Shown here piece by piece: positions 11,673 through 29,334 of a stretch of 64,000 nucleotides of DNA. Source of the DNA: a virus (Duplodnaviria; Heunggongvirae; Uroviricota; Caudoviricetes); the IMG/VR virus record IMGVR_UViG_2721755676_000001; one strand, written 5' to 3'. The position numbers were made by a program, and so were the translations under genes. The notes under the pieces are model-generated. The model had not been told where the DNA came from. It did no database searches and saw nothing but the letters and a program-made list of their open reading frames with translations. Within the stretch, counting starts at the first letter, position 1, and every line of letters begins with the position of its first letter.

Positions 11673-11942
11673 GTGTCGCCATTAGAGCTACTGAACGTTC
11701 CTCTCACGATGTTCTGGATGCTCAGTCGCAATATAGACCGTCTGCGTGCGGAAGAGGATGTCCGCAACTTACAAGTCGCTCGTGCGTCCCAGGCGGATGG
11801 CGAGGCTGTGAAGGCGTTCATGGAGGGTTTGCAACTCAGGATTGGAAGACCAGTCGTAACAGATAAAGTCTACGATCCAAGCCAGGATAAGGCAGACCCT
11901 GACGCCAAAGAGCAACTGATGCAAATATTTGGCAGAGGATGA
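11673..11942 (+). CDS. tail assembly chaperone frameshift extension (gpT-like; frame open from 11556)
   Basis: ORF in the -1 frame relative to the G-like gene; -1 frame is open from 11556 and overlaps the G gene's last 36 nt; ends just inside tape measure start. Confidence 0.5.
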   Translation: MSPLELLNVPLTMFWMLSRNIDRLRAEEDVRNLQVARASQADGEAVKAFMEGLQLRIGRPVVTDKVYDPSQDKADPDAKEQLMQIFGRG

Positions 11943-11949
11943 CAAGGGA

Positions 11950-14900
11950 ATGTCACAAAACGTAGAGTTTATCCTGTCGCTGGAAGACAAACAGTTTACA
12001 GCGTCAATCGATCGTGCGGGGAAACTGCTTACTCGATTTGGTGAGCAGGTAACAAAGCCTGCTCAAAAAATCCAAACCTTTGAACGCTCTTTGGGTTCGG
12101 TCGCCCGTATCATTGGCGTTCTGGAAAGCAAGCTCGATTCTACGGCAGATAAACTACAGGATGTAGCTGCCGGTTTTGAGCTTGCTTCAGATGCTACGCG
12201 TAAAATGCGTGGCAACATCACCAGCCTCAATTCTGGTCTTAAAGCCCTGATTGAGCGCGTCGATACGACAACTTCTTCAGTAGATAAACTCACCGCGTCA
12301 TTACGTAAAGTGCAATCAGAGCTAAATGATTTCTCTGATTGGGCGACCTATGCAAGCAAAAGCGCAAGCCGCTTTGGTACGGAGGTCAAAGAAGCCTCTG
12401 CGTCCGTGAGTGGCATGAATACGCGCCTTAATACCACGACGAAGCGACTCAGTAATTGGGGTGTCACAACGAGTCAGGCTGCCGAGGGACTGAAAAAGGT
12501 TCGTGAGCAGATGGACGAAGTTATCGGACGTCAGCAACTGATTAGCAAGCCGGTACGCGTTCGTACATCTGGAAGTGGCGATGGTGGCAGCGGGCGGCGT
12601 AGCGGCTCTGGCCATAGCGATAAAAGTAACGAAGGAGGTATGTTCTCTGGCCTTCGTGGCAACATTTTCCTGCTTGGCGAGATCGGAGATGCAGCCAGAA
12701 CGGTTACTGACATCATGTTTGGGTGGCAGAAGCCTATTGTTGAAGCTGCGGCCGAAATGGAACGTATGCGGGTGATGCTTCGAGGGTTGAATAAGGAGAA
12801 GTCCAACCCGGGCCAGGCTGCCGCTGATGATATGAAGTACATCGTAGACATGGCTCAAAATGCGCCGTTCGCGATGCAGGCGTTAACAGATTCCTTCGTG
12901 AAGTTTCGTTCTGCTGGCTTAGATCCAACCGATGGCTCTCTGAAGGCGCTGGTGGACTCCGTTGCTCGTTTTGGTGGTGATAGTGAGCTGTTGAAACGTG
13001 CGGCTGTGGCCGTTCAGCAGATGTCCGGTAAGGGCGTCGTGTCAATGGAAGAGCTACGTCAGCAATTAGGTGAAGCCGTTCCTAACGCGATGCAGGCAAT
13101 GGCAGACGCCGCAGGCATCACTATGGGGGAACTGACTAAAGCCGTTGCCAGCGGTACGGTTGAGGCAAAACAGGCGTTGTCTCTGATGTTTGTTGGTCTG
13201 CGTGCGGAGAATGAGAACGCAGCGAAAGACATGATGCAAACCTACACAGGTGCGCTGGCGCAACTTCAGACGTCATTCACGTTATTTGCTGATCGGGTTG
13301 GTCAGGCCGGATATCTGGATTCTCTATCGAAGGGGATGAAAGAACTGGCTTCAATCATGAATAGCGCCGAAGGGATTTCGTTTGCCAATTCTTTAGGTTC
13401 GGGGTTAACAACGGCAATCGATGGGTTGCGTCAGCTTGCTCAATGGTTAGCAAAGAACCAAGAGCTGGTAATTAATCTCGGTAAGGTCGTGGCCGCGATG
13501 GTTGCGTTCAAACTGATGCGAGCATGGATCATGGGGGTAGTTGGCGCTGGGAGCCAGATGGTTAGCACCTTTGCCACGATGGCGACCGCCATACAGACTC
13601 CATTTAACCTCGGCGCTACAGCAGTAACTCGATTCAATCGTGCGGCACGTATGGGGCTGGCTCCGATCCCCTCTCTTATTTTCGCCATCCGTGGGGCGAT
13701 TACGGGGCTTAAAGGCGCTTTTGCTGGCCTGACTGCGTTTATTGCGGCGAATCCGATAGGTTTTGTTTTCACTGCTGCAATGACCGCTGTTGCTGGCTTA
13801 ATCACGTATATGACCATGCTTCGTAGCGAAACTTCAAAGGTCGTTGACGAGATTAGGAAAATACCAGAAGCGATGACGGCGGCTAAACGTGCACAGATGG
13901 CCGAGTATAAAGCGCGTCTTGAGCAACAAATCACGCAAAAGGAACAAGAGTTAAAATCTGGCGAAAAGGTGGTTTATGGGCCGGGTATGGCCGGAACTAC
14001 AGTAAAGATTAATCATGATGAACGTAAGCGAATAGAAAATGAGCTAAATGAACTTCGTAAGAAACGCGATAAAACCAATGAAACTATTGCCAGAGGGGAT
14101 TTGGCTGTAGCCAAACGTCTGGCAAAAGAGACGGCAGAATCCCAGATAGAGAAAATACTCGAAGAGAATAGAGACTTTGCGGCAACGTTCGTGAAAGCTC
14201 GTCAGGAGGCTCTGGAGAAAATCCAGAAAATCAAGGATGACGGTTCACTTTCGGATGACGAAAAGAACAAGCTATTGGCACCGTTACGTGAAACGGTAAA
14301 CAAAAGCTATCTGGAGCCTGCGCAAAAACTGGTTGATTCACTTTCTTCTCGTAAGAATGCGACCGAGAAGCAAATCGCGACTCTTAATGATCAGCTTGAA
14401 AAAGCGAAAAAGGAAGGAAATACCGAGCAGATTCAGAAACTGCAAGGAAGTATTCGTGGCTATCAGGAGCATTTGGAAGTCGTTGCTCAGGAACTGACTC
14501 AGGCAGAGTTTAAGAGGGATAACGCGGCCAAAAGTGGTAATGGCTTAGTGTCAATCAATGGAGATGTTCTGGGGTTAGGTACAACTGATAAAGCTGCTCA
14601 GAAGGCGCTGGCGCAATATATGCGAAACCAGATGGATTCTGCGACTTATCAGCGTACTTTGCCTGACGGCACTCCGATGATGGACTTCGAAGGTAAGCCG
14701 ATTATTGGGCCTAAACAACTCAAGACGCAGCTTAATTTGCAGAAAGCATCCAGCGCCAGCTCTCTGGAGAAAATGAGCGATGAAGAGCGTGCCGCAGCCA
14801 TTGCTGCACTAACTAAAGCTCGTGAACAGGATGCAGCAGCTGCCGAGAAAGCAGCCCAACGATCAGCTAACGCCTCGCAGCGTGCGGCCAAGAAGGAACA

Positions 14901-16506
14901 GGCAGCGCAACAGAAACTGGCAGCCGGATACCAGAAGGCTCTGGACAAAGCCGATCAGCTTATGGGGCAAATGGGTGAAAGCTCTAAGGCTACGGTATCG
15001 TTTGATCAGTCTCTTCGCGATACAACGAAATCGCTGACAGATTTGGCTAATGCGGTTCCTAACGAGTTCATCACTCAAGAGATGATCGACAAGGCGAAAA
15101 AACGTCTTGAAGACCTCAAAAATGCGACACCTGAATATCGCGAGATGTTTAATCGCCGCAATGTTGAGCAGATGATCTCCACTTGGGCACCGGAGGCGGA
15201 TTCCATTATTAGTGCTGGCTATACGCCGTCTCGCGAAGAGAAAGTTGCTGATTTCGAAGACACCTACAACCGCAATCTCAAAGCGTTGATAGAACTTCGT
15301 GATAAGGCGTCTGATCCTAAAGTTGTGGCGCTTTATACAAAGAAAATCAATCAACTGATTGCTGCTGGCAATACCGCGCTTATTAAAGAGACGGGGACTG
15401 CGACGCAGAAGTTGGCACTGGAATACGAAAACCTGGCAGAGCAGATCGAAAGCACCTGGACTGATTTGTTTAGTGGCTTAACTGATGTCCTGACTGATTT
15501 CGTTATTAACGGGAAGATGAGCTTCTCCAGCCTATCTCAGTCCATTTTGAAAGATATCACCAATATGGTCGTGAAGTCGCAGATCACGCTGCCTCTAATG
15601 AACATGTTGGGGATGGGAACCACCGCAGCTGGTAGTTCACAGAGTGGTAATTTGCTGACCGGGGTTGCTTCCGCCGTTGCCAATCAAGGGGTACGAATGG
15701 GCAACACTGTTAACGGCGACAAGTCGGTAGGAGAAGCCACGAAGGAGACGTCCAGTTCGGTAACTGGATTGGGGCAAACAACACAGCAGACCACCAGCGC
15801 AATTGGCACTGCAACAAATGCGATTGGTAGCTGGGTATCAGGGCTATTTGATAGCACTGAAGCCAAAGATGCCGAGACAAAAGCCGTGAAGGACTCCATC
15901 TTCTCGATGCAGAACCTCAGCTCTGTTACCGGCGCGCTGTCTGCCGCGTTTGCAATGCTTGGAGCTAATGCTTCCGGCTCTGGTAATAAGTGGTTGAGTT
16001 TTGGAGCAACGGTTGCATCTGGTCTTGTTTCAGCTTGGGCTGGCGGTGGTTTCGACAGCGTGACATCAAGCTCTGCTAAAACCGCAACCAGCAGTGTGGC
16101 TGACGGAACTAAAGGCATTCCTGCAATCCCGAAGTTTGCAAATGGAGGAATATTCGGAAAAGACGGCGTGATCCCGCTCCGTGCATACCAGAAAGGCGGT
16201 ATTGCTAACTCGCCTCAATTAGCGTTGTTTGGGGAAGGTTCTATGAATGAGGCGTATGTTCCATTGCCTGATGGCCGAACAATCCCTGTAACGCTCAGTA
16301 CCGATGGTATGAGTGGAGGCGGAAATGTTCTTTCTCCTGTATCAATTGAGATCAACGTCCATAGTGACGGTAGCACGACAGAATCCGGCGATACAGAAAG
16401 CATATGGAACAATGCCGCTCAACGGATGAAAGCAATCGCGCTTGAGACTATCGCTCAAGAGAAACGCCCTGGCGGATCACTCAACCCAAACACTCAACGT
16501 AACTAA
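11950..16506 (+). CDS. tail tape measure protein
   Basis: ~1500-aa mostly helical/coiled-coil protein after G/GT chaperones; ATG at 11950 (track ORF starts at TTG 11929). Confidence 0.85.
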   Translation: MSQNVEFILSLEDKQFTASIDRAGKLLTRFGEQVTKPAQKIQTFERSLGSVARIIGVLESKLDSTADKLQDVAAGFELASDATRKMRGNITSLNSGLKALIERVDTTTSSVDKLTASLRKVQSELNDFSDWATYASKSASRFGTEVKEASASVSGMNTRLNTTTKRLSNWGVTTSQAAEGLKKVREQMDEVIGRQQLISKPVRVRTSGSGDGGSGRRSGSGHSDKSNEGGMFSGLRGNIFLLGEIGDAARTVTDIMFGWQKPIVEAAAEMERMRVMLRGLNKEKSNPGQAAADDMKYIVDMAQNAPFAMQALTDSFVKFRSAGLDPTDGSLKALVDSVARFGGDSELLKRAAVAVQQMSGKGVVSMEELRQQLGEAVPNAMQAMADAAGITMGELTKAVASGTVEAKQALSLMFVGLRAENENAAKDMMQTYTGALAQLQTSFTLFADRVGQAGYLDSLSKGMKELASIMNSAEGISFANSLGSGLTTAIDGLRQLAQWLAKNQELVINLGKVVAAMVAFKLMRAWIMGVVGAGSQMVSTFATMATAIQTPFNLGATAVTRFNRAARMGLAPIPSLIFAIRGAITGLKGAFAGLTAFIAANPIGFVFTAAMTAVAGLITYMTMLRSETSKVVDEIRKIPEAMTAAKRAQMAEYKARLEQQITQKEQELKSGEKVVYGPGMAGTTVKINHDERKRIENELNELRKKRDKTNETIARGDLAVAKRLAKETAESQIEKILEENRDFAATFVKARQEALEKIQKIKDDGSLSDDEKNKLLAPLRETVNKSYLEPAQKLVDSLSSRKNATEKQIATLNDQLEKAKKEGNTEQIQKLQGSIRGYQEHLEVVAQELTQAEFKRDNAAKSGNGLVSINGDVLGLGTTDKAAQKALAQYMRNQMDSATYQRTLPDGTPMMDFEGKPIIGPKQLKTQLNLQKASSASSLEKMSDEERAAAIAALTKAREQDAAAAEKAAQRSANASQRAAKKEQAAQQKLAAGYQKALDKADQLMGQMGESSKATVSFDQSLRDTTKSLTDLANAVPNEFITQEMIDKAKKRLEDLKNATPEYREMFNRRNVEQMISTWAPEADSIISAGYTPSREEKVADFEDTYNRNLKALIELRDKASDPKVVALYTKKINQLIAAGNTALIKETGTATQKLALEYENLAEQIESTWTDLFSGLTDVLTDFVINGKMSFSSLSQSILKDITNMVVKSQITLPLMNMLGMGTTAAGSSQSGNLLTGVASAVANQGVRMGNTVNGDKSVGEATKETSSSVTGLGQTTQQTTSAIGTATNAIGSWVSGLFDSTEAKDAETKAVKDSIFSMQNLSSVTGALSAAFAMLGANASGSGNKWLSFGATVASGLVSAWAGGGFDSVTSSSAKTATSSVADGTKGIPAIPKFANGGIFGKDGVIPLRAYQKGGIANSPQLALFGEGSMNEAYVPLPDGRTIPVTLSTDGMSGGGNVLSPVSIEINVHSDGSTTESGDTESIWNNAAQRMKAIALETIAQEKRPGGSLNPNTQRN

Positions 16507-16966: not shown

Positions 16967-17665
16967 ATGGGAATTAAAGCTGATATTCAGAGCTTATCTC
17001 CCTCTGCACTCATTGAGTTGTTCGTACTGGATATGTCGAACACAACTTCAGGGGGGAAGCTATTCTTCCACGCCGGAACAAACGAACTGATGCAACCGGT
17101 CGTCTGGCAAGGAGTGACATACGAGCCGTGGCCAATCAAAGCATCAGGCTTTGACAAAACTGGCCAGGGAACGTTGCCACGTCCAAAAATTCAGGTATCG
17201 AACTTTGCCGGAACCGTCTCTGCGGAAGTTCAGGCGAACGACGATCTTGTTGGCTGCCGCATTATTCGCAAGATGACGCTGGCTCGCTTCCTCGATGCCG
17301 TTAATTTTAAAGATGGTAATCCAACAGCAGATCCAAACCAACATTTCCCGGATGAAATGTGGTTTATCGAACAGAAAACGCTCGAAACTCATCAGGTTGT
17401 CGAGTTTGAGTTGTCCAGTGTGTTCGATTTGATGGGGGTGCAACTGCCGTATCGTCAGATCATTAAAAACACCTGCCCGTGGAAATACCGAGGGCCAGAA
17501 TGCGGCTATACCGGTCCATATTTCGACAAAAATAACCAGCAGACGTCTATGTCTGGTGCTGATTACTGCACAAAACGTTATGACGCCTGTAATGCGCGTC
17601 GGAATTATTTTGCCAACGGAGTGATCCATTTTGGCGGGTTTATTGGAGCTACGCGATATGGGTAA
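16967..17665 (+). CDS. minor tail protein (lambda gpL-like)
   Basis: Cys cluster CPWKYRGPECGY in C-terminal part, as in gpL-type proteins; ATG 16967 with AAGGA RBS. Confidence 0.75.
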   Translation: MGIKADIQSLSPSALIELFVLDMSNTTSGGKLFFHAGTNELMQPVVWQGVTYEPWPIKASGFDKTGQGTLPRPKIQVSNFAGTVSAEVQANDDLVGCRIIRKMTLARFLDAVNFKDGNPTADPNQHFPDEMWFIEQKTLETHQVVEFELSSVFDLMGVQLPYRQIIKNTCPWKYRGPECGYTGPYFDKNNQQTSMSGADYCTKRYDACNARRNYFANGVIHFGGFIGATRYG

Positions 17666-18455
17666 TAAAGCAATCCCTGAGCTTGGCTCTGATGTTATGC
17701 AGCAAATCTATCTCTGCGCCATAAATCGCTACCCTAATGAAGCGTGTGGCTTTCTGGTGAGAACTAATGGCGACAAATATCGCTTTATGGAAGCGCGAAA
17801 TGTTTCGGAGAACCCGCAGAACACTTTTGTAATGCACGTTGACGACATTATGGCGGCAGAGGATGCGGGTGATGTTATCGCAATCTGGCATTCACATACT
17901 GATGAATCAGCAGAAGCATCTGATGCCGATCGTGCAGGCTGTGAAGCGACGGAAGTTCCGTGGATGATTCTGGCTATTCGCAAGAATGTTGAGGGAGATG
18001 CCCCTTTCCATTTTAGCGAGATGAATGTGATCACACCTGATGGTTTCGAAATGCCATACCTGGGTAGACCGTATGTATTTGGCGTATTCGATTGCTGGAT
18101 GTTGTGTCGGGACTATTTGAAGCGTGAGTTTAACGTCGAACTAAACCCGAACGCACACCTGCATATTCCATCGTGGTACACCGGCGATAACGACATTCTC
18201 GATCAGAACTACCGTAACGAGGGATTGGTGCGTCTTGCGCCCGGAACAGAGCCTCAACGTGGGGACGTATTCTTTATCCAATACGGAAAAATGCCTGACC
18301 ACTGTGCGGTTTATATCGGCGATGGAATGATTCTTCATCACCAGATCGACCGCCTTAGTTGTCGTGCTTATTACGGCGGGATGTATCAGAAACATACGAC
18401 GCATCACTTGCGTCACAGAGACTTGCTCAAGGGAGATGAGACGTGTCTGAGTTAG
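17658..18455 (+). CDS. tail assembly protein (lambda gpK-like; JAB/MPN plus NlpC/P60-like)
   Basis: JAMM-like H-S-H-x7-S-x2-D (IWHSHTDESAEASDAD); ATG 17658 with GGAG RBS overlapping L stop. Confidence 0.75.
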   Translation: MGNKAIPELGSDVMQQIYLCAINRYPNEACGFLVRTNGDKYRFMEARNVSENPQNTFVMHVDDIMAAEDAGDVIAIWHSHTDESAEASDADRAGCEATEVPWMILAIRKNVEGDAPFHFSEMNVITPDGFEMPYLGRPYVFGVFDCWMLCRDYLKREFNVELNPNAHLHIPSWYTGDNDILDQNYRNEGLVRLAPGTEPQRGDVFFIQYGKMPDHCAVYIGDGMILHHQIDRLSCRAYYGGMYQKHTTHHLRHRDLLKGDETCLS

Positions 18456-19036
18456 TTCATGTGCAGCTTGGCGGCCCTATGGCCAAACATTTTGGCCGCC
18501 ACTGGCATCTAAAGGTGCGCAATACAAAACAGGCTCTGGATTTAATTGAGGCCAACAAGCCTGGGTTTAAAGCATGGATGAAGCGCAACATCAAAACCTA
18601 TGACAGATACCACATCCAGATCACCAATAAACAGGGCCACAAGTGGTCTGTGGACGAGAGTGAATATCAGATGATGGGGCAGTCTGACAACATAGCCAAA
18701 ATCCGCATTACCCCTGTTCCGCGAGGAAGCGGCGGTTCTGCTTTTGGGTGGTTTCAGACGGTAGTAGGAGCCGCTTTGTTGGTTGTATCGGCGGTAATGA
18801 TGCCCGCTCTTGCGCCTCTCGGTTTGTCACTGATGATGGGCGGTATAGCGCAAATCATATCTCCGCAAGCCACTAACGAAAGTGTGAGGCAGGCGGATAA
18901 CTCGAACTCTTATTACTTTGATGGACCTCAAAACACAACAAACCAGGGGAACCCTGTACAGCTTATCTATGGCGAGGAAATTTTAGTTGGCTCACAGGTC
19001 GTGAGTTCTTCTATCACCATCGACCAGCTTATGTAA
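18443..19036 (+). CDS. tail assembly protein (lambda gpI-like)
   Basis: GTG start with GGGAGA RBS; hydrophobic/Gly-rich C-terminus; position between K and J. Confidence 0.65.
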   Translation: MSELVHVQLGGPMAKHFGRHWHLKVRNTKQALDLIEANKPGFKAWMKRNIKTYDRYHIQITNKQGHKWSVDESEYQMMGQSDNIAKIRITPVPRGSGGSAFGWFQTVVGAALLVVSAVMMPALAPLGLSLMMGGIAQIISPQATNESVRQADNSNSYYFDGPQNTTNQGNPVQLIYGEEILVGSQVVSSSITIDQLM

Positions 19037-19047
19037 TCAAGGATTTT

Positions 19048-22000
19048 TTGGACATGGAACAGTTCAAGAAGAAAAAATTACCGCTTCTTATTGCCGGTGC
19101 TGGTGGCAAGAAAAGTAAAAGCTCCAGCCGTACCCCGGTTGAAGCTGATGATACTGTCAATTCTCGTGCTATGGCAGCCATCCTCGACCTTCTTGGCGAG
19201 GGGGTTATCGGTGGCCTGGTAAATGGCGCAAAGTCGATCTTCATCGACGATTTACCGATCTTGAATGAAGATGGCTCTTCCAACTTCAGCGGTATTACAT
19301 GGGATTTTCGTGACGGCTCACAAGACCAGACGCCAATGGCTGGTTTTGATTTTGTTGAAACGCCTAAGTCCGTAAATATTCAGCTTAAAAAAACACACGA
19401 CGTTACGGTTTCAATCGATAACGATGAAGCTGATCGCGTTCGTGTCATCATGAAATTCCCCTCTTTACGTAGCGTTGATAAAAGCTCTGGCGATACAAAT
19501 GGCACTACGGTGAAGTACAAATTCCAGATCGCCAACGCAGACGCAACATTTTCTGATGTAGTGGCAGAAGGTGAGAAAAGCGTTGATATCACGCTAACGG
19601 CAAAGAAAACCGGCGTGTATTACCGTAGCTATGAGCTGAAACTGCCTAAGCCTGGTCGTGCATACAAGGTTAGGGTGATTCGTCTTACAGATGATAATAG
19701 TAGCCAGTACCTCTACAACGACACATGGGTTGATTCCATCGGTGAGATTGTCGACACGCCAATGAACTACCCTAACTCTGCTCTTGTTGGCTTGAAGGTC
19801 AATTCAGAGCAGTTTGGTAGCACAATGCCTTCCCGTTCGTATTTGGTGCGCGGTATCAAAATCCGAGTACCGTCAAACTACAACGAATACACCAATACTT
19901 ATGTCGGCGTATGGGACGGTACTTTTAAGCTGTTGTCTTCTTCAAACCCTGCGTGGATTCTCTACGATTTGCTTACCAATACTCGGTATGGTCTTGGGCA
20001 ATTTGTGTCGGAATCCATGATTGACCTCGGCCAGCTCTACCAGATTGGTCGATATTGTGACGAGGAGGTCGATGATGGCTTTGGGGGTAAAGAGAAACGT
20101 TTTGCAATCAATACGCAGATCACTAGCCGACAGGATGCATACCGATTAATTCAGGATATTGCCGGTGCATTCCGCGGCATGGTGTTTTGGGCTGGTGGCA
20201 TGGTTAACATCATGCAGGATAGCCCATCAGATCCGGTAATGATGTTTACCAACTCCAACGTCAAAGATGGACTGTTTACCTATAAAGGTTCTGCGCGTAA
20301 AGATCGCCCATCCGTTGCGCTCGTAACCTACAACAACAAGGAGGACGGTTATAAGCAAAATATCGAGTACGTTGAAGATCAGGACGCAATGCGCCGTTAT
20401 GGTGAGCGTAAAACAGAAGTCGTAGCATTTGGATGTACAAGCCGAGGCCAGGCTCACCGAGTTGGTTTGTGGCTTTTGTATACCGCCAGAATGGAGTCGG
20501 ATGTAATTACATTTACTGCCGGCTTAGACGCCTCATTTCTGATGCCTGGTGAAACCGTTCTGATTCAGAACAAATATCGTGCAGGTAAACGTAACTCCGG
20601 TCGAATTGTGGAGTTTACCAAAAACAGCATCACTCTCGATGCGCCTGTGTCGTTAGCTAAAAGCGGCAGCTTTATTCGGATATTGAATCAGGAAGGCAAA
20701 ATCGTTGAACGCGATGTTCTTGAAACTGGCGAAAACATAACAAAGGTTACGTTTTCAAAAGCCCTGTCGTCAGCGGAAACGCCTGTTTTGAACGGTGTCT
20801 GGACAATTACAGAACCAGATCTCGAACCTATGCGCGTTCGCATCGTTAACATCGCACAGGGGGAAACGCCGGGTAGCTTTGACATCACCGCTGTTGAGAA
20901 CAATCCGTCTAAATATGAGGCAATCGACAATGGTGCAACGCTGATCCCGCAGAATACGACGGTATTGGACCCAACTTACTCCAAGCCATCTAATCTGCAA
21001 ATCACTGAAGGGACTTATCTCTCAAGCCCGGGCAACCTGTCAGTAAAACTGACTGCAACATGGGAAGGGAAGTCTCCAGAGTATTGGATCAGTTGGCGAC
21101 GTTCTGATGAAAACAATGTATCGAACTGGCAATCGGCGCGTGTAACCGAAGAGCAATACGAAATCGTTAATGTCGCGGAGAATGGACGCTACGACTTCCA
21201 GCTGTATGCGGTTTCATTCAACGGTAAAAAAACAGAGATTATCAGTACCGTTTATCAGGTGTTGGGCACAATGACACCGCCTGATGCCCCAACGTCATTA
21301 ACGGCCGTTGGAGACTATCGTAATGTGATACTGAATTGGGTTAATCCAGATTCGGTAGACCTTGATCACATTAATGTTTACGCATCCCAGACCAACAATC
21401 TGGATACGGCGAAACTGATCGCAGAGTCTGCAAGCACCACCTTTACACATGCTGGTCTTGGGGATAGCGAAACGTGGTATTACTGGGTTCGAGCATCGAA
21501 CAAGCGAGGTATGTTAAGCCCTCCGAACTCAAACTTGGGTACAGAGGCGACAACTCGCGATGTACTGTCGTTCCTGGCTGGCAAAATTACATCTTCCGAG
21601 CTTGGTCAGGCTCTGCTTGAGGACATCAACAGCAAAGCCTCTCAAGAAGCAGTTGACGAGTTAAATGAGCATATCAACCAGAGCGTCGAATCTTTAGAGG
21701 GGGCGGTAAACGACGTTAAGGAAGATATAGCTGAATTAGATAAGCAGTTCAGCGATAACCTCGCGGATTTTGAAATAAAATTCAACGAGCGTAGCGATGC
21801 TTTGGAGAACGCACAAACCGAGCTTAAAGGTGAGGTTTCGGCAACGATTGACAAGGTCAATGAAGCGTTTGAAAAAATTGATGCTACTGATGCTGCAATT
21901 GTTGAAATCGAAAACACCGTATCTGAACACGATAAAGCTCTCGCTAATACAGTCGAGGCAATAAAGGCTGCAAGAGATGAAGCGGCGGCTCTTATTGCTA

Positions 22001-23778
22001 AGGAAAGCGAGGCTCGTGTTGAAGGCGATGCTGCAAACGCTAAACAACTGGAAGTGTTGCAGTCAACGGTAGAGGAAAGCTCCGCTGCCGTTGAAGAAAT
22101 GAAAAAGACGGTTGCAGAGGTCGATCGTGCCAGTGCAGAACTGACTACGAACATTGAGGCGTTAGCCAAAACAAATATTGACCTGGCTCTTCGTCAAGAT
22201 GAAGACCAGCACAAGCAGATGGTCAATAACGCGAAGATCGCAACAACACAGAAAACCTTTGCTGATGATATGTCTGCAATGGCCACGAAGGTTGAGGAAA
22301 TTCGCGTAGAAATTGGCGAAGACATTAAGGCCAGTATTCTGGAAGAGTCCACCGCTCGTGCCGATGGCGATGAAGCGTTGGCAAAGCGTGTCACTCAGCT
22401 GCAATCTAAGTTTGAAGGAGATATCAGCGCGGCGATTAGTACAGAGCAGGAGGCTCGTACATCTGCCGATGAAGCTCTGACGACACAAATCACTCAGCTT
22501 GAGTCGAAAGTAAGCAACGATATCGTCGCAGCTATTAAGGAAGAGCAAGAAGCCCGAGCAACGGAAGATTCGGCTCTGGCAAGCCAGATCACCCAACTTC
22601 AGGCAAAGGTTGATGATGATATTTCTGCTGCAATACGTAGTGAGCAGGAGGCCCGAGCAAGCGGGGACTCTGCGTTAGCCAAACAAATAAACCAGCTTCA
22701 GTCAAAGGTTGACGGTGATATATCCGCTGCCATCACTCAGGAGCAGGAGGCCAGAGCAAGTGCTGACCAGGCGCTCTCACGAGAAATTAACAGCCTGCGA
22801 GCACAAACCGGAACTGATATTGCCGCAGCGGTTGCTGTAGAGACAAAAGCAAGGACTGATGCCGATAGTGCATTGTCTACCCAGATTACGTCTCTTACAG
22901 CAAAAGCTAATGATCTCAAGGCGTCTCTTGCCAGAGAAACAACGGCTCGTGCAGATGGTGATACCGCTTTAACAAAAGAGGTTTCAAGTTTAAAAGCACA
23001 GACAGCGAAAGATATTAGTGCGGCCGTTGCAGTTGAAACGCAGGCTCGAACTGATGCTGACTCGGCGTTGTCGTCTCAGATCACCAAGCTGACCTCTCAA
23101 TACAAAGAGGATATTAAAGCGGCTGTAGCAACCGAAACGAAAACACGTACAGAGCAAGATGCTGCATTGGCGACTCAAATCACAAACTTAGAGTCTCAAA
23201 CGGCAGCCAACATTTCCGCGGCGGTCACAACTGAAACGACAGCGAGAACGCAGGCAGATAATGCTCTGAGTGGGCGAATCGATACTCTGAAAGCAGAGGT
23301 GAATGGAAATACCGCGACAATTCAACAGCAGGCAACAGCTATTGCTGATACCAACAAAAAAGTGTCAACCGCGTGGACGTTGAAAATGGAGACTTCAACG
23401 AGCGGAGGGCAGAAGTATGTTGCCGGTATTGCGCTTGGTATTGACACCACTGGGCTATCTCAGTTTTTGGTTCAGGCGGACAGGTTTGGTTTGGTCAACT
23501 CTGTTAACGGGAAGATCACAACGCCATTTGTTATCGAAAACAGTATCGCCTATATGAATGGAGCGTATATCAAGGATGGCACAATCACCAATGCAAAAGT
23601 AGGCGATCTGCAATCTACCAATTTTGTTAGCGGTAGATCTGGATGGCGATTCGGCAAAAATGGAACGCTTGAGATCAACGGTAATAGCGGCGGCAATGGG
23701 CGATTGGTTATAAATGGTCAGCGGATTGACGTTTATGACGATAACAACGTCTTACGAGTAAGAATTGGCCGTCTGTGA
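19048..23778 (+). CDS. central tail fibre / host specificity protein (lambda gpJ-like)
   Basis: Recognisable gpJ-type blocks (YPNSALVGLKVNSEQFGS, VPSNYN, GVWDGTFK, FGCTSRGQAHRVGLWL, KYVAGIALGIDT..LSQFLV) recalled from lambda J. Confidence 0.9.
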   Translation: MDMEQFKKKKLPLLIAGAGGKKSKSSSRTPVEADDTVNSRAMAAILDLLGEGVIGGLVNGAKSIFIDDLPILNEDGSSNFSGITWDFRDGSQDQTPMAGFDFVETPKSVNIQLKKTHDVTVSIDNDEADRVRVIMKFPSLRSVDKSSGDTNGTTVKYKFQIANADATFSDVVAEGEKSVDITLTAKKTGVYYRSYELKLPKPGRAYKVRVIRLTDDNSSQYLYNDTWVDSIGEIVDTPMNYPNSALVGLKVNSEQFGSTMPSRSYLVRGIKIRVPSNYNEYTNTYVGVWDGTFKLLSSSNPAWILYDLLTNTRYGLGQFVSESMIDLGQLYQIGRYCDEEVDDGFGGKEKRFAINTQITSRQDAYRLIQDIAGAFRGMVFWAGGMVNIMQDSPSDPVMMFTNSNVKDGLFTYKGSARKDRPSVALVTYNNKEDGYKQNIEYVEDQDAMRRYGERKTEVVAFGCTSRGQAHRVGLWLLYTARMESDVITFTAGLDASFLMPGETVLIQNKYRAGKRNSGRIVEFTKNSITLDAPVSLAKSGSFIRILNQEGKIVERDVLETGENITKVTFSKALSSAETPVLNGVWTITEPDLEPMRVRIVNIAQGETPGSFDITAVENNPSKYEAIDNGATLIPQNTTVLDPTYSKPSNLQITEGTYLSSPGNLSVKLTATWEGKSPEYWISWRRSDENNVSNWQSARVTEEQYEIVNVAENGRYDFQLYAVSFNGKKTEIISTVYQVLGTMTPPDAPTSLTAVGDYRNVILNWVNPDSVDLDHINVYASQTNNLDTAKLIAESASTTFTHAGLGDSETWYYWVRASNKRGMLSPPNSNLGTEATTRDVLSFLAGKITSSELGQALLEDINSKASQEAVDELNEHINQSVESLEGAVNDVKEDIAELDKQFSDNLADFEIKFNERSDALENAQTELKGEVSATIDKVNEAFEKIDATDAAIVEIENTVSEHDKALANTVEAIKAARDEAAALIAKESEARVEGDAANAKQLEVLQSTVEESSAAVEEMKKTVAEVDRASAELTTNIEALAKTNIDLALRQDEDQHKQMVNNAKIATTQKTFADDMSAMATKVEEIRVEIGEDIKASILEESTARADGDEALAKRVTQLQSKFEGDISAAISTEQEARTSADEALTTQITQLESKVSNDIVAAIKEEQEARATEDSALASQITQLQAKVDDDISAAIRSEQEARASGDSALAKQINQLQSKVDGDISAAITQEQEARASADQALSREINSLRAQTGTDIAAAVAVETKARTDADSALSTQITSLTAKANDLKASLARETTARADGDTALTKEVSSLKAQTAKDISAAVAVETQARTDADSALSSQITKLTSQYKEDIKAAVATETKTRTEQDAALATQITNLESQTAANISAAVTTETTARTQADNALSGRIDTLKAEVNGNTATIQQQATAIADTNKKVSTAWTLKMETSTSGGQKYVAGIALGIDTTGLSQFLVQADRFGLVNSVNGKITTPFVIENSIAYMNGAYIKDGTITNAKVGDLQSTNFVSGRSGWRFGKNGTLEINGNSGGNGRLVINGQRIDVYDDNNVLRVRIGRL
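22342..23305 (+). repeat. ~10 tandem 99-bp (33-aa) coding repeats inside the gpJ-like gene (unit ~ EQEARAsADsALstQItqLqsKvddDISAAI)
   Basis: Periodic protein sequence read from translation. Confidence 0.8.
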
Positions 23779-23807
23779 TGGTGGAAAAAAAATTTTATAT
23801 CGGTAAA

Positions 23808-23831
23808 AATAGGTAAGTATCTACTTAATAG
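23808..23831 (+). promoter_or_regulatory. junction motif AATAGGTAAGTATCTACTTAATAG
   Basis: Read directly; upstream of side tail fibre gene. Confidence 0.35.
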
Positions 23832-23871
23832 CGGGCAAGGATAGCCCGCCAAATCAAGGAGCATATTCAAC

Positions 23872-26800
23872 ATGTGGTACAGGGAAGGTACTATCACATT
23901 TACACAGGGCAGCAATACTCTGGTTGGGGCAGGGACAGCCTGGAACGTAACAGCTAATGGTGTGTTGCCGGGGATGATCGTCATTGGCCCCGACAATAAG
24001 CTGTATGAGATCAAGCGCGTAACCAGTGATACGAACATTGTTCTCTCAGAACCTTATACCGGCGAAACTCAGTCTGAAGTTCCGTGCCGAATCATTACGA
24101 CCTATGAAGGCGACTTAACACAGTTTAGCGCGCGCTTTACTGCGCTAATGTCGCGTATGTCGGCTGATTCCAAGTCCATACGCAGTTGGTTGACTGCGCT
24201 GGATGAGGTGACAATCGAGCGTGAAGACGGTACAGAAGTGACCGTTAAGCCGCTAATGCAGATCGCCAACGAGCACAACGAAAACGTTGAGTGGTATAAA
24301 AATAACACTGACGCGATTGATGCTGCTGGCGACAAAGCTCGTGAGGCGGCGGCCAGTGCTGCCGCAGCAGCAAAAAGCGCCAATGCCGCTGGAGAAAAAG
24401 CCTCTCAAGCGTCTCAAAGTGCATCCGCTGCGGCATCCTCACAAAGTGCCGCAAGTGCGAGTGCAACTGCTGCGAAAAAATCTGAAACGAATGCTGCAGC
24501 GTCACAAAAATCTGCAGCCACTTCTGCATCCACCGCGACCACGAAGGCGTCAGAAGCTGCCACCTCAGCCCGGGATGCGGCGGCCTCAAAAGAGGCAGCG
24601 AAATCATCAGAAACGAACGCATCCTCAAGCGCCAGTAGTGCCGCTTCCTCGGCAACGGCGGCAGGAAATTCCGCGAAGGCGGCAAAAACGTCCGAGACGA
24701 ACGCCAGGTCTTCTGAAACGGCAGCGGGACAGAGCGCCTCAGCTGCGGCAGGCTCAAAAACAGCGGCTGCGTCGTCTGCCAGTGCCGCGTCAACAAGTGC
24801 CGGGCAGGCCTCAGCCAGTGCCACCGCCGCCGGAAAATCGGCAGAAAGTGCCGCATCGTCTGCTTCAACAGCCACAACGAAGGCTGGCGAAGCCACTGAA
24901 CAGGCCAGCGCAGCAGCGAGGTCTGCTTCCGCAGCGAAGACATCCGAAACGAACGCGAAAGCGTCGGAAACCAGCGCAGAATCCTCAAAAACGGCTGCCG
25001 CATCGTCCGCCAGTTCGGCGGCGTCATCGGCATCATCGGCGTCTGCTTCAAAAGATGAGGCGACCAGACAGGCGTCAGCAGCGAAGGGCAGCGCCACGAC
25101 GGCATCCACGAAAGCAACAGAGGCGGCAGGCAGTGCGACGGCAGCATCTCAGAGCAAAACTGCTGCTGAATCCGCTGCGACTCGTGCGGAAGCTGCTGCT
25201 GATCGTGCTGAAGAGATTGCCGGTGCAGTTGCGATGGAAGACGCAAGCCTTACAACTAAAGGTGTTGTGAAACTTAGCAGTGCTGTCGACAGCACCAGTG
25301 AATCGCTGGCCGCAACGCCAAAAGCAGTTAAAGCAGCCAATGACAATGCGAATAGCAGGGTGCCATCTAACCGAAAAGTTAACGGTAAAGCACTGACTGC
25401 GGATATCAAATTAACGCCGAAAGATATTGGTACTTTAAATTCAGTAACGATGTCTTTCTCTGGCGGGGCAGGGTGGTTCAAACTGGCTACGGTTACCATG
25501 CCACAAGCGAGTTCCATCGTTTACATCGCATTGATTGGTGGCGCTGGTTACAACGTCGGCTCCCCACATCAGGCAGGCATTTCAGAACTGGTTCTACGAG
25601 CAGGCAATGGAAACCCCAAAGGGATTACAGGTGCTTTGTGGAAGCGTACAGCTGTCGGATTAACGAATTTCGCCTGGATCAACACATCCGGCGATACATA
25701 TGATATTTACGTTGAGATTGGCAATTATGCGACTCGTGTAAATATCCATTGGGATTGTACTGCAAATGCGACAGTTTCTATTTATACCTCGCCAACATAT
25801 TCAGCGAGTAAGCCTTCCAGCGTTACCGATGGTGTTGTTTATACGATGTATAGCACACATCAGAAACCGACGCCGTTAGATATTGGAGCACTGCCAACAA
25901 CCGGAGGAACAGTTTCAGGTCCGTTGTCTGTTACAGGTGGATTAACTGGTTCATTGAATGGTAATGCAAGTACAGCCACGAAATTGCAGACGGCAAGATC
26001 TATCGGTGGAGTTGTTTTCGACGGTTCTGCAAATATTAACCTTCCAGGTGTAAACACTACGGGTAATCAGAACACCACTGGTAATGCTGCAACTGCTACA
26101 AAACTTCAGACTGCAAGAAAAATATCCGGTGTTCCATTTGATGGTTCTACTGATATCACTTTAACCGCTGCGCATGTTGCCGCTTTCGCAAGAAGGGCAA
26201 CAGGGTCATATGCGGATGCTGATGGTGGCGTGCCGTGGAATGCTGAATCTGGTGCTTACAATGTAACTAGAACAGGCGACAGTTATATTCTTGCCAACTT
26301 TTATACCGGTGTAGGTAGTTGCCGGACCCTGCAGATGAAGGCGCATTACAGAAATGGAGGTCTGTTCTACCGTTCCTCAAGAGATGGCTATGGTTTTGAA
26401 AGTGGTTGGGAGCAGGTTTACACGACTGGATTTATGCCTCAGCCGGCTGATATAAACGCGCCAACCGCTGCCGCTGGATGGTTAAATAGTGGTAACGGAA
26501 CGGCATTTACGACTGCTCAATTTATAACTTGGCTAAATAATCAGGGGGCATTTACAAACAAACATTGGATCGCACGGTGCTCATGGGCTTACGCCAACAA
26601 TAATTATATAGACGACACTGGTTGCGGTAGGATCGATCTATCTGGTTCCGTGATTGAGGTGTTTAGTAATAAGGCAACAAGCCACTACACTATTCGTGTT
26701 ACAACGACAACAACATCGGGTCATGGTGGTGTTAACAATGCGGAATTTATTTATGTGTACAATGGAAGTGATTATGCACCAGGCTGGCGTCGTTCTTATA

Positions 26801-28230: not shown

Positions 28231-28485
28231 ATGAGCTATGGTGCACAGGTTTGGTCGCCATCAAGACAGGAGATGGTCAATGCGTTGGCCCCTGTTTATT
28301 ACCTCGATTATTTTACTCCCTCTGGTTCAGGAAGTAGAACATATGAGGTTGAGGCGGGATTGGGAATCGACTATTACATAATGGACGTAACCAATGGAAA
28401 GTACACAAGTCTTACGGTTTCTGGAAATACCATTTCGTGGTCTGGAGCTAGTGGTAATTTAAACATATTGGTTTTTCAAAAATAA
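28231..28485 (+). CDS. hypothetical protein (AT-rich cargo gene)
   Basis: ORF with AAGGA RBS; visibly lower GC than flanking structural genes. Confidence 0.5.
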   Translation: MSYGAQVWSPSRQEMVNALAPVYYLDYFTPSGSGSRTYEVEAGLGIDYYIMDVTNGKYTSLTVSGNTISWSGASGNLNILVFQK

Positions 28486-29093
28486 TGTACGGAAGCAAGA
28501 TATATCGATCTGACGGGAAGGTCTGGATGTCTCCTTCTTTGTCTCCTATCGTTTTTCAGAGAAAGCAGGTTGTTTCTTTGTCCGGCGGGACAGAGTTTAA
28601 CACCAAAATATCTCCAGATCGTTCACCGATTATTTTTGTTGCCTATTCGAAAGCTGTTTCATTAATAGCCAACAGAATAGTGCGTAACAACCAGGTGATT
28701 TACAGTTTCGGAGGTCGGGGTAGCGACTCTAGTGCCACGATATACGTATTTTCGAAAGGTATAGCCAAAAAAGAAACTTGGGGCATGAGTTTTTTCAATG
28801 CACAAGGGGGGGAAATCTATAATACGGCAAATATCCCACTTTCATTTACCTTTCTTAATAATACGGAGTGGAACAGCTCTGGAGGGCATGTTTTTGATTA
28901 CCCTCCAGCGATAATCCCAACATATGCGAATGTGTTCGCTGTTCCAGTACCGGGCGGAGCCATGACAATGGTTTATGGATATGCGGCGTATGGAAATACT
29001 GTTAGCTCGATATTCGTAAACCAACTTAATGGCGGCCATAGTTTTAGCGTAAATGGCAGAGTACCGGTAATAAATAGAAATCTGTATAACTGA
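28485..29093 (+). CDS. hypothetical protein (AT-rich cargo gene)
   Basis: ORF start overlaps upstream stop (TAATG). Confidence 0.5.
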   Translation: MYGSKIYRSDGKVWMSPSLSPIVFQRKQVVSLSGGTEFNTKISPDRSPIIFVAYSKAVSLIANRIVRNNQVIYSFGGRGSDSSATIYVFSKGIAKKETWGMSFFNAQGGEIYNTANIPLSFTFLNNTEWNSSGGHVFDYPPAIIPTYANVFAVPVPGGAMTMVYGYAAYGNTVSSIFVNQLNGGHSFSVNGRVPVINRNLYN

Positions 29094-29100
29094 TGAGTAA

Positions 29101-29334
29101 ATGATGAAAAGATTATTTCTAACAATAGCTGTTGTTCTCTCTCTTACTGGCTGCCAGAAATTGCCGACACCTATATGTTATGGTGAAGCTATCATTGGTG
29201 GACAGGAGACAGTCATACCCATATATGCTGTTAAAAAAGTGAACGACTATACCTTATACAAAGCGGGTAGCATCTATAACTGGCGATGGGTTGGAGTAGG
29301 TGCTTTCTCATCAATCGGTTGCAATGCTGAATGA
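29101..29334 (+). CDS. small lipoprotein (candidate Cor/Llp-like superinfection-exclusion protein)
   Basis: Signal peptide with lipobox LSLTGC; 77 aa; located directly after tail fibre genes. Confidence 0.5.
   Translation: MMKRLFLTIAVVLSLTGCQKLPTPICYGEAIIGGQETVIPIYAVKKVNDYTLYKAGSIYNWRWVGVGAFSSIGCNAE

Follow-up and report, generated by a model that had tools for sequence, protein, structure and literature searches.

A stretch of 64,000 nucleotides (hereafter the window) from the virus record IMGVR_UViG_2721755676_000001 (Caudoviricetes), assigned from its sequence to the structural half of an SSU5-like phage-plasmid of Escherichia coli, encodes a protein of the TipJ/lambda gpJ central tail fibre family (hereafter J) that carries ten consecutive units of 33 amino acids (aa). 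A long coiled-coil shaft, trimeric and alpha-helical, would have the array as its distal two-thirds and would part the tail-tip cone (the gpJ hub and FNIII domains) from a distal beta-prism domain; the residues of the array match in full the sequence signature published for the fold-switching shaft of an F-type pyocin. It is proposed here, with moderate confidence, that the array is a metastable trimeric coiled-coil 'spring' that switches to a beta-prism, the copy number of the units setting the length of the shaft and possibly its stroke.

The first-pass annotation of the window had reported about ten tandem coiled-coil units of 33 aa, in frame, at positions 22342-23305 of the window, inside a gpJ-like gene of about 1576 aa. 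The open reading frame (ORF) read from the first TTG codon encodes 1576 aa and holds ten units, in agreement with that report; the start of the array had been placed exactly, whereas its end had been set inside unit 10, short of the true end (Table 1). Compared with itself over the reported interval, the J protein shows 48% identity at an offset of 33 residues, 40% at 66 and 32% at 99, against ~15% at unrelated offsets, so that the periodicity is clear, and AlphaFold2 predicts a continuous helix for the region. Units 1-5 and 7-10 are 33 aa long and unit 6 is 32 aa long, with the unit consensus x-E-t-e-A-R-a-d-a-D-s-A-L-a-x-Q-I-T-q-L-x-s-k-v-x-x-D-I-s-A-A-i-a.

In pairwise comparisons the DNA of the ten units is 39-70% identical, which is about equal to the protein identity; the highest value (70%) is that of units 3 and 4, and the longest exact word common to any two units is 12 nucleotides (nt). 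Tandem Repeats Finder reported no 99-bp array in nt 19000-26000, because the units are only 39-70% identical and share words of at most 12 nt; the program has an identity limit of ~70%, and its null result reflects this limit and not the absence of a repeat. Therefore, the earlier description of the array as '99-bp units' is valid as a statement about the reading frame, but not as one about a DNA repeat. The duplications that gave rise to the units are old, and selection on the protein keeps the pattern.

The 32-aa spacing at the place of unit 6 is also found in the phage Cyrano and in two further loci (L002 and L003), and this length is kept at the same place in all the E. coli alleles examined. 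The AlphaFold2 model computed from the single sequence breaks the helix there, and unit 6 may serve as a hinge or a docking kink.

The shaft of the F-type pyocins was described in three studies of 2026 as a three-stranded coiled coil with docked side fibres (PMC13455828; 10.64898/2026.02.24.707460; PMC12874032). According to He et al. (PMC12874032), 163 residues of this shaft become a triangular beta-prism on contact with the cell, the tip opens and the tape measure protein is released. Each strand follows the pattern SxSxxMxxLxS with alternating direction, Asp/Glu-Arg pairs stand four residues apart with the acid at the M position, and three seed strands past the shaft do not switch; the corners of the prism require small residues, and enlarging these residues abolishes killing (PMC12874032). 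The word 'repeat' is absent from that paper, and the segment is not described as one.

The elements of this sequence signature have counterparts in J. The forward pattern lies at unit positions 12-22 in each of the ten units and the reverse pattern crosses all ten unit junctions (positions 30 to 7), forward and reverse copies being 18 and 15 aa apart. The 26 motif matches compare with 5.4 +/- 2.3 (maximum 13) in 2000 shuffled sequences. The pair E2/R6 fits the acid-Arg pair, as does R6/D10, and the strands predicted at aa 1421-1434, 1438-1450, 1456-1465 and beyond in the AlphaFold2 model computed with an alignment fit a three-strand seed.

The unit occurs widely as a module: with a profile Hidden Markov Model (HMM) built from the ten units, more than 100 of the proteins returned by the homology search were found to carry 2-11 units in an array, with periods of 32, 33, 36 or 39 aa and commonly located before the PF09327 domain. 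Conservation was assessed in 507 unique units from about 120 homologues. In these, E2 is present in 100%, R6 in 98% and D10 in 92% of the units; positions 13, 17 and 20 are hydrophobic in 95-96%; and positions 5, 7, 12, 14, 22 and 30 are occupied by Ala, Ser, Thr, Val or Gly in 92-100%. Positions 25-27 are acidic, and the unit has an acidic V-D-(D/G)-D-I turn. The strongest point in favour of a fold switch is that, throughout the family, small residues are conserved where a static coiled coil would impose no constraint.

The AlphaFold2 model of the monomer computed with an alignment of 80 sequences contains a continuous helix at aa 1091-1406, with a predicted local distance difference test (pLDDT) score of 70-89 that falls to 51-72 over the distal three units, and its beta strands start at aa 1413, within unit 10. 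When the alignment was omitted, two long helices were predicted with a break at aa 1294-1303, corresponding to the end of the 32-aa unit 6. Proline is absent from the entire inserted shaft stretch (aa 849-1427). The hydrophobic period of the array is 3.65 (33/9, i.e. three hendecads per unit) and that of the 250 aa upstream is 3.55; a second strong harmonic of the array at 2.06, indicative of beta-type alternation, is much weaker in the upstream shaft, where 3.55 dominates. The helical nature of aa 849-1098 was judged from the absence of proline and the hydrophobic period, the AlphaFold2 helix covering aa 1091-1406. This proximal part carries forward and reverse copies of the motif at aa 949, 964, 981, 996 and 1013, and all the SSU5-like J proteins have a match to the unit HMM here (aa ~986), lying 114 aa upstream of the array.

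The J array is thus described as a shaft of the T1/F-pyocin type, a trimeric coiled coil of modular build that is probably metastable, its trimeric state being suggested by the threefold tip of all gpJ homologues and by the pyocin structures. At 0.15 nm per residue, the ten units would span ~49 nm and the whole helical region (aa 849-1406) ~83 nm. For SSU5, with a shaft of ~390 aa, the estimate is about 55-60 nm. Among the characterised homologues compared (lambda, T1, F-pyocins and SSU5), the shaft of J is the longest and the most regular. One segment of the proximal shaft (aa ~1030-1094, NIDLALRQDEDQHKQMVNNAKIATTQK...) shows far higher conservation across genera than the units on either side and includes an acidic cluster (QDEDQ); on the model of the pyocin shaft with its acidic kink, it is a candidate attachment site for side fibres.

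The number of units varies among the relatives. Cyrano carries the same ten units, CP054387 also has ten, PhiR41_1 nine and SSU5 five, and the count in other members of the family is six (Salmonella; Yersinia pMT1 type) or, in some E. coli, five. Full-length copy numbers were counted from DNA loci, the protein search having returned only sequences under ~940 aa, many of them partial. PhiR41_1 has exactly one 33-aa unit fewer than CP054387; NZ_CP027358 lacks nt 22604-22702, and NZ_CP081792 and two sister records lack nt 22666-22764. These constitute three independent in-register 99-bp differences, each at a microhomology of 10-12 nt and all in the most similar units 3-5, between alleles that are otherwise 97-98% identical. 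Nine-unit alleles account for four of the ~164 full-length plasmid records. In a set of 5426 complete E. coli genomes the region was present in 166, in every case on a plasmid, and among these, which were sampled by rank, nine-unit alleles occurred in the lowest-ranked rows only; no 11-unit allele was seen among the ~164 plasmid records and the rank-sampled 166 genomes.

Ten units are kept in about 95% or more of the E. coli alleles, and therefore the history of the array is one of slow modular evolution and not that of a slippage-prone locus. The gain and loss of units anticipated by the first-pass annotation does take place, as seen in the counts of 10, 9, 6 and 5 and in the exact one-unit differences, but it is rare. 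Position by position, the units of the window have orthologues in a lineage that is 18% diverged in DNA; in SSU5, the last unit alone has a one-to-one counterpart. Nearly identical neighbouring units occur in other lineages, namely in the metagenomic protein P0008 (units 4-6) and in T1 gp33, and indicate, from their sequences, recent duplication there. Three records (NZ_CP035843, NZ_CP124394 and NZ_CP085184) carry a J gene cut by insertion sequences (IS100, ISEc23, IS1203) in otherwise intact phage-plasmids; such elements probably cannot make infectious tails.

One 33-aa unit corresponds to three hendecads (33/9 = 3.67 residues per core position) and holds one forward and one reverse copy of SxSxxMxxLxS together with a buried Glu-Arg pair. 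In the proposed mechanism, engagement of the cell surface by the distal end would allow the three seed strands with which PF09327 begins to nucleate the conversion of the units into beta-hairpin rungs, each unit passing from ~4.9 nm of helix to an estimated ~1 nm of prism. The resulting shortening of the fibre would pull the tip to the membrane and open it for the exit of the tape measure protein and the DNA. Copy number (5, 6, 9 or 10) would set the length of the shaft and possibly the stroke, and would change rarely, through in-register deletions or duplications of one unit at short microhomologies. A length-setting role had been suggested by the first-pass annotation, which saw the array as a spacer alone; that view is judged incomplete. 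More tentatively, the 32/33-aa unit may be regarded as the quantum of a fold-switching spring whose stroke and stored energy scale with the number of units, and which phages tune to the envelopes of their hosts by rare insertions and deletions. If so, the ten-unit E. coli SSU5-like phage-plasmids would have the longest such spring among lambda, T1, F-pyocins and SSU5, with a contraction of ~40 nm.

Several points weigh against the fold switch. In both AlphaFold2 runs (80 sequences and one sequence) the repeats are helical, with units 1-9 forming helix only, and the beta state was never predicted; the two runs were meant to mimic the deep/shallow contrast of CF-random, and, as monomers only, they are uninformative for the beta state. 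A Foldseek search of the deeper model against the PDB gave no match to the pyocin prism, probably due to a single long helix carrying no fold signal. The fold-switch study is a 2026 preprint on a pyocin and not on a phage, SSU5-like phages are not among its examples and its text does not mention SSU5 (PMC12874032). The array is twice the length of the 163-aa switching segment, and perhaps the distal units alone switch. The small flanking residues could instead reflect tight packing of the trimer, and the near-constancy of ten units in E. coli shows no more than that length is under constraint.

A serious rival, considered possible though clearly less probable than the spring, is a stable trimeric coiled coil whose sole role is to keep the distal binding domain, and perhaps also the side fibres, a fixed distance away from the tail tip, for example to pass O-antigen or capsule; the fold would not change, and bending or receptor binding would open the tip, as it does in lambda or T5. 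Helix is indeed the sole predicted state, strong conservation of the unit count is seen in the E. coli lineage, and host genera differ in length class (most E. coli have 9-10 units; Salmonella, Yersinia and some E. coli alleles have 5-6); lambda and T5, moreover, open their tips without such a switch, as noted by He et al. (PMC12874032). However, a static spacer leaves unexplained why six positions outside the core are 92-100% small across 507 diverged units, as well as the strict alternation of forward and reverse motifs and the beta-type harmonic at 2.06, and metastability has been demonstrated for the homologous shaft of the pyocin (PMC12874032).

The array might also act as a rack on which each unit, or its acidic V-D-(D/G)-D-I turn, binds side-fibre trimers or accessory proteins, so that copy number would set the number of appendages. 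In F-type pyocins an acidic kink in the shaft is where three side-fibre trimers attach (PMC12874032, PMC13455828), the side fibre encoded in the window has a weakly similar N-terminal domain and the units are acidic at positions 25-27. Docking in the pyocin, however, uses one short kink and not a repeated site, and the QDEDQ-containing segment or the 32-aa unit 6 would be better candidates for such a kink; the similarity to the pyocin side fibre is low (E 2.8e-4), and there is no evidence of more than one set of side fibres, all of which makes this role unlikely. As regards a hypervariable contingency repeat, in which frequent slippage would change the copy number and generate phage subpopulations with different fibre lengths, the exact one-unit differences between 97-98% identical alleles and the near-identical neighbouring units of P0008 and T1 gp33 are what it would predict. 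It is nevertheless essentially excluded by the low identity of the units in DNA, with no more than 12 consecutive bases shared and no array found by Tandem Repeats Finder, by the rarity of nine-unit alleles and the lack of any 11-unit allele in the records surveyed, and by units remaining positionally orthologous across lineages 18% apart in DNA.

The assignment of J to the TipJ/lambda gpJ family was made from the homology of its hub and FNIII domains, the presence of PF09327 and the position of the gene. Pfam domains identified in J are FNIII-A_GpJ (PF24801, aa 103-237), Phage-tail_3 (PF13550, aa 359-522), fn3 (PF00041, aa 746-825) and, at the distal end, Phage_Tail_Tip (PF09327, aa 1424-1558, E 1.4e-41); none was found between aa 826 and 1423. 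Sequence matches in the PDB over aa ~16-868 span E 1e-115 to 1e-154 and include the F2-pyocin fibre (E 1e-154), T1 gp33 (9e-134) and lambda gpJ (3e-127). For the shaft units and the distal domain, the matches are T1 gp33 (E 4.6e-31) and the F2-pyocin fibre (25vf, E 1.8e-24). Foldseek of the deeper model against the PDB recovered the distal domain only, matching lambda (8xcj/8xci) and SU10 (7z4b).

Lambda gpJ (PDB 8iyk, 8xcj) has homologous hub, FNIII and central-straight-fibre domains and the same operon order M-L-K-I-J. Its residues 3-837 align to aa 22-862 of J and 840-971 to aa 1420-1548, so that ~560 aa of J, predicted to be helical, are placed between the FNIII domains and PF09327 where lambda, whose residue 837 runs into 840, has almost none and thus lacks a helical shaft. 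Lambda also has a LamB-binding domain of ~160 aa past the fibre domain. T1 gp33 (PDB 9l9p; PMC11945409) carries its own 33-aa repeats before the same distal domain and ends in ...RVQIGRL, which matches the end of J (...RVRIGRL); it differs in being 1172 aa long and in having ~3-4 units, of which two are almost identical. Its C-terminal 352 aa were unresolved and predicted as a fibre of ~37 nm (PMC11945409). The distal domain of J further aligns to residues 986-1168 of T1 gp33, up to its last residues, and to 1021-1193 of the F2 pyocin fibre.

The F-type pyocin fibres (F7 PyoF10/PA0641; F2, PDB 25vf) share with J the hub and FNIII core, a shaft before the PF09327 prism, the SxSxxMxxLxS motif with Glu/Asp-Arg pairs, and the lack of a lambda-type receptor-binding domain. 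Hand reading of the pyocin shaft in the alignments suggests about five degenerate units of ~31-33 aa. The pyocin shaft is 163-180 aa long with degenerate periodicity, whereas that of the window is ~560 aa, with 329 aa in ten regular units; the pyocin is a headless Pseudomonas bacteriocin, the window belongs to an E. coli phage-plasmid, and the fold switch was demonstrated for F7 only. The J proteins of SSU5 (gp20), Cyrano/pLF82, PhiR41_1 and Yersinia pestis pMT1 are direct orthologues of the same layout, including the isolated degenerate unit, and SSU5-like J proteins differ in the number of units: 5 (SSU5), 6 (Salmonella/pMT1 type), 9 or 10.

The distal end of J is shorter than that of lambda, as stated in the first-pass annotation: 28 aa follow the block aligned to lambda 971, compared with 161 in lambda. 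The array had been placed there between the gpJ core and a C-terminal receptor-binding region with a different receptor-binding domain. It does lie between the core and a distal domain, and the end is not lambda-like, but the distal part is the PF09327 beta-prism domain common to lambda, T1 and F-pyocins and not a receptor-binding region. The lambda-type C-terminal receptor-binding domain, which is lacking in J as in T1 gp33 and the F-type pyocin fibre, is a feature of lambda itself and not of the whole family.

Other ends occur among the relatives. In P0016, P0017, P0021, P0023 and P0024 (Salmonella, pMT1 type, Citrobacter) the last ~60 aa of the distal domain are replaced by an extra domain of 150-250 aa (PF12421 in some), which begins directly after a conserved '...DGTI(T/S/D)NAKIG'; the '...NAKIG' site looks, from its sequence context, like a module-swap junction for receptor-binding ends. 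Two Klebsiella SSU5-like J proteins (L004, gene from locus position ~6007, and L005, from ~5412) have the first ~870 aa in common with the others and a replaced distal half of more than 2000 aa, in which repeated carbohydrate-binding-like modules lie between coiled-coil segments and which runs past the fetched locus.

Table 1. Positions of the J gene, its parts and the neighbouring genes in the 64,000-nt window
Feature	Position (nt)	Strand	Basis or remark
gpJ-like central tail fibre / tip attachment protein gene	19048..23778	+	1576-aa ORF from first TTG
Ten tandem 33-aa units	22342..23328 (aa 1099-1427)	+	Offset-33 identity, register, motif in every unit, predicted continuous helix
Unit starts	22342, 22441, 22540, 22639, 22738, 22837, 22933, 23032, 23131, 23230	+	In-register layout
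Unit 6, the sole 32-aa unit	22837..22932	+	Residue missing near position 24; local register shift
Exact 99-bp deletion stretch, units 3-5	22604..22764	+	NZ_CP027358, NZ_CP081792; 10-12-nt microhomology
Proximal aperiodic part of the shaft	21592..22341 (aa 849-1098)	+	No proline, period 3.55, degenerate unit copies
Non-repeat shaft segment NIDLALRQDEDQHKQMVNNAKIATTQK...	22135-22329 (aa ~1030-1094)	+	Also conserved in SSU5 and Photorhabdus, among others
Distal beta-prism 'central straight fibre' domain (PF09327)	23329..23775	+	Pfam E 1.4e-41; ends ...RVRIGRL
gpK-like (JAB + NlpC/P60) and gpI-like tail tip assembly genes	17631..19036	+	Pfam, annotations of relatives; directly upstream of J
Side tail fibre gene, 1432 aa	23872..28170	+	Pfam Gp34_trimer, Peptidase_S74
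phrog_557 gene	28231-28485	+	PHROG match E 2e-24
phrog_425 gene	28485-29093	+	PHROG match E 6e-48
Cor superinfection-exclusion lipoprotein gene (phrog_1119)	29101-29334	+	PHROG match E 8e-30

The genes of the window are arranged in the order terminase, portal, capsid, tape measure (11929-16506), M, L, K, I, J, side fibre and lysis genes, the position of J after the tape measure gene and the homologues of M, L, K and I being established from ORFs, Pfam and the annotations of relatives. The J gene is 99.9% identical to that of E. coli plasmids such as pSTEC409_1 and 95% identical to that of Escherichia phage CMS-2020a and Cyrano (pLF82). In the 99.9%-identical plasmids the RefSeq start is the ATG at 19054, two codons past the TTG at 19048, which gives a protein of 1574 aa beginning MEQFKKKK. 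Minus-strand ORFs overlapping the repeat (22162-22596 and others) were rejected as genes, as they are unsupported and lie inside a plus-strand gene with strong homology. The paper describing Cyrano (pLF82) gives the dimensions of the head and the tail and does not describe the fibre.

The N-terminal ~110 aa of the side fibre (nt 23875-24198) include a weak match of aa 2-109 to residues 3-106 of the F2-pyocin side fibre 25ve_A (E 2.8e-4). In pyocins the side fibre's OB-like N-terminal domain docks on the shaft of the central fibre (PMC13455828, PMC12874032). The remainder of the side fibre includes an Ala/Ser-rich low-complexity stretch of ~300 aa with SETNA-like motifs, a trimerisation domain of the T4 gp34 type and a C-terminal S74 chaperone. 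Its length varies among close relatives, being 1432 aa in the window, 1341 in Cyrano and 1385 in pSTEC409_1, with split genes in PhiR41_1.

The phrog_557, phrog_425 and Cor genes occur in the same order in SSU5. Cor marks FhuA-dependent phages, T1 being a Cor-type, FhuA-dependent phage, and the Cor gene of the window hints, by this analogy, at FhuA as the terminal receptor. T1-like phages encode separate receptor binders and exclusion genes downstream of gpJ (PMC8594841), and the region 28231..29334 may, by comparison, be a candidate separate receptor-binding/exclusion locus. The lack of a receptor-binding domain in J itself fits such a separate downstream locus, and receptor binding is probably the task of another protein, by analogy with F-pyocins and T1-like phages (PMC8594841).

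The source of the energy with which non-contractile tails breach the cell envelope is an open question, to which the coiled-coil-to-prism switch of the pyocin offers a new answer, shown in one bacteriocin. In the present locus the proposed switching segment is built from countable 32/33-aa modules, and natural alleles with 5, 6, 9 and 10 of these exist in a common inducible phage-plasmid family found in E. coli and Salmonella. Pairs of alleles that differ by one unit in a gene otherwise 97-98% identical make the relationship of module number to fibre length, adsorption and ejection testable in real phages, and the main value of the array lies in this natural length series for testing the new mechanism. 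The findings are also relevant to the engineering of tailocins and to host-range prediction for the phage-plasmids that spread resistance genes.

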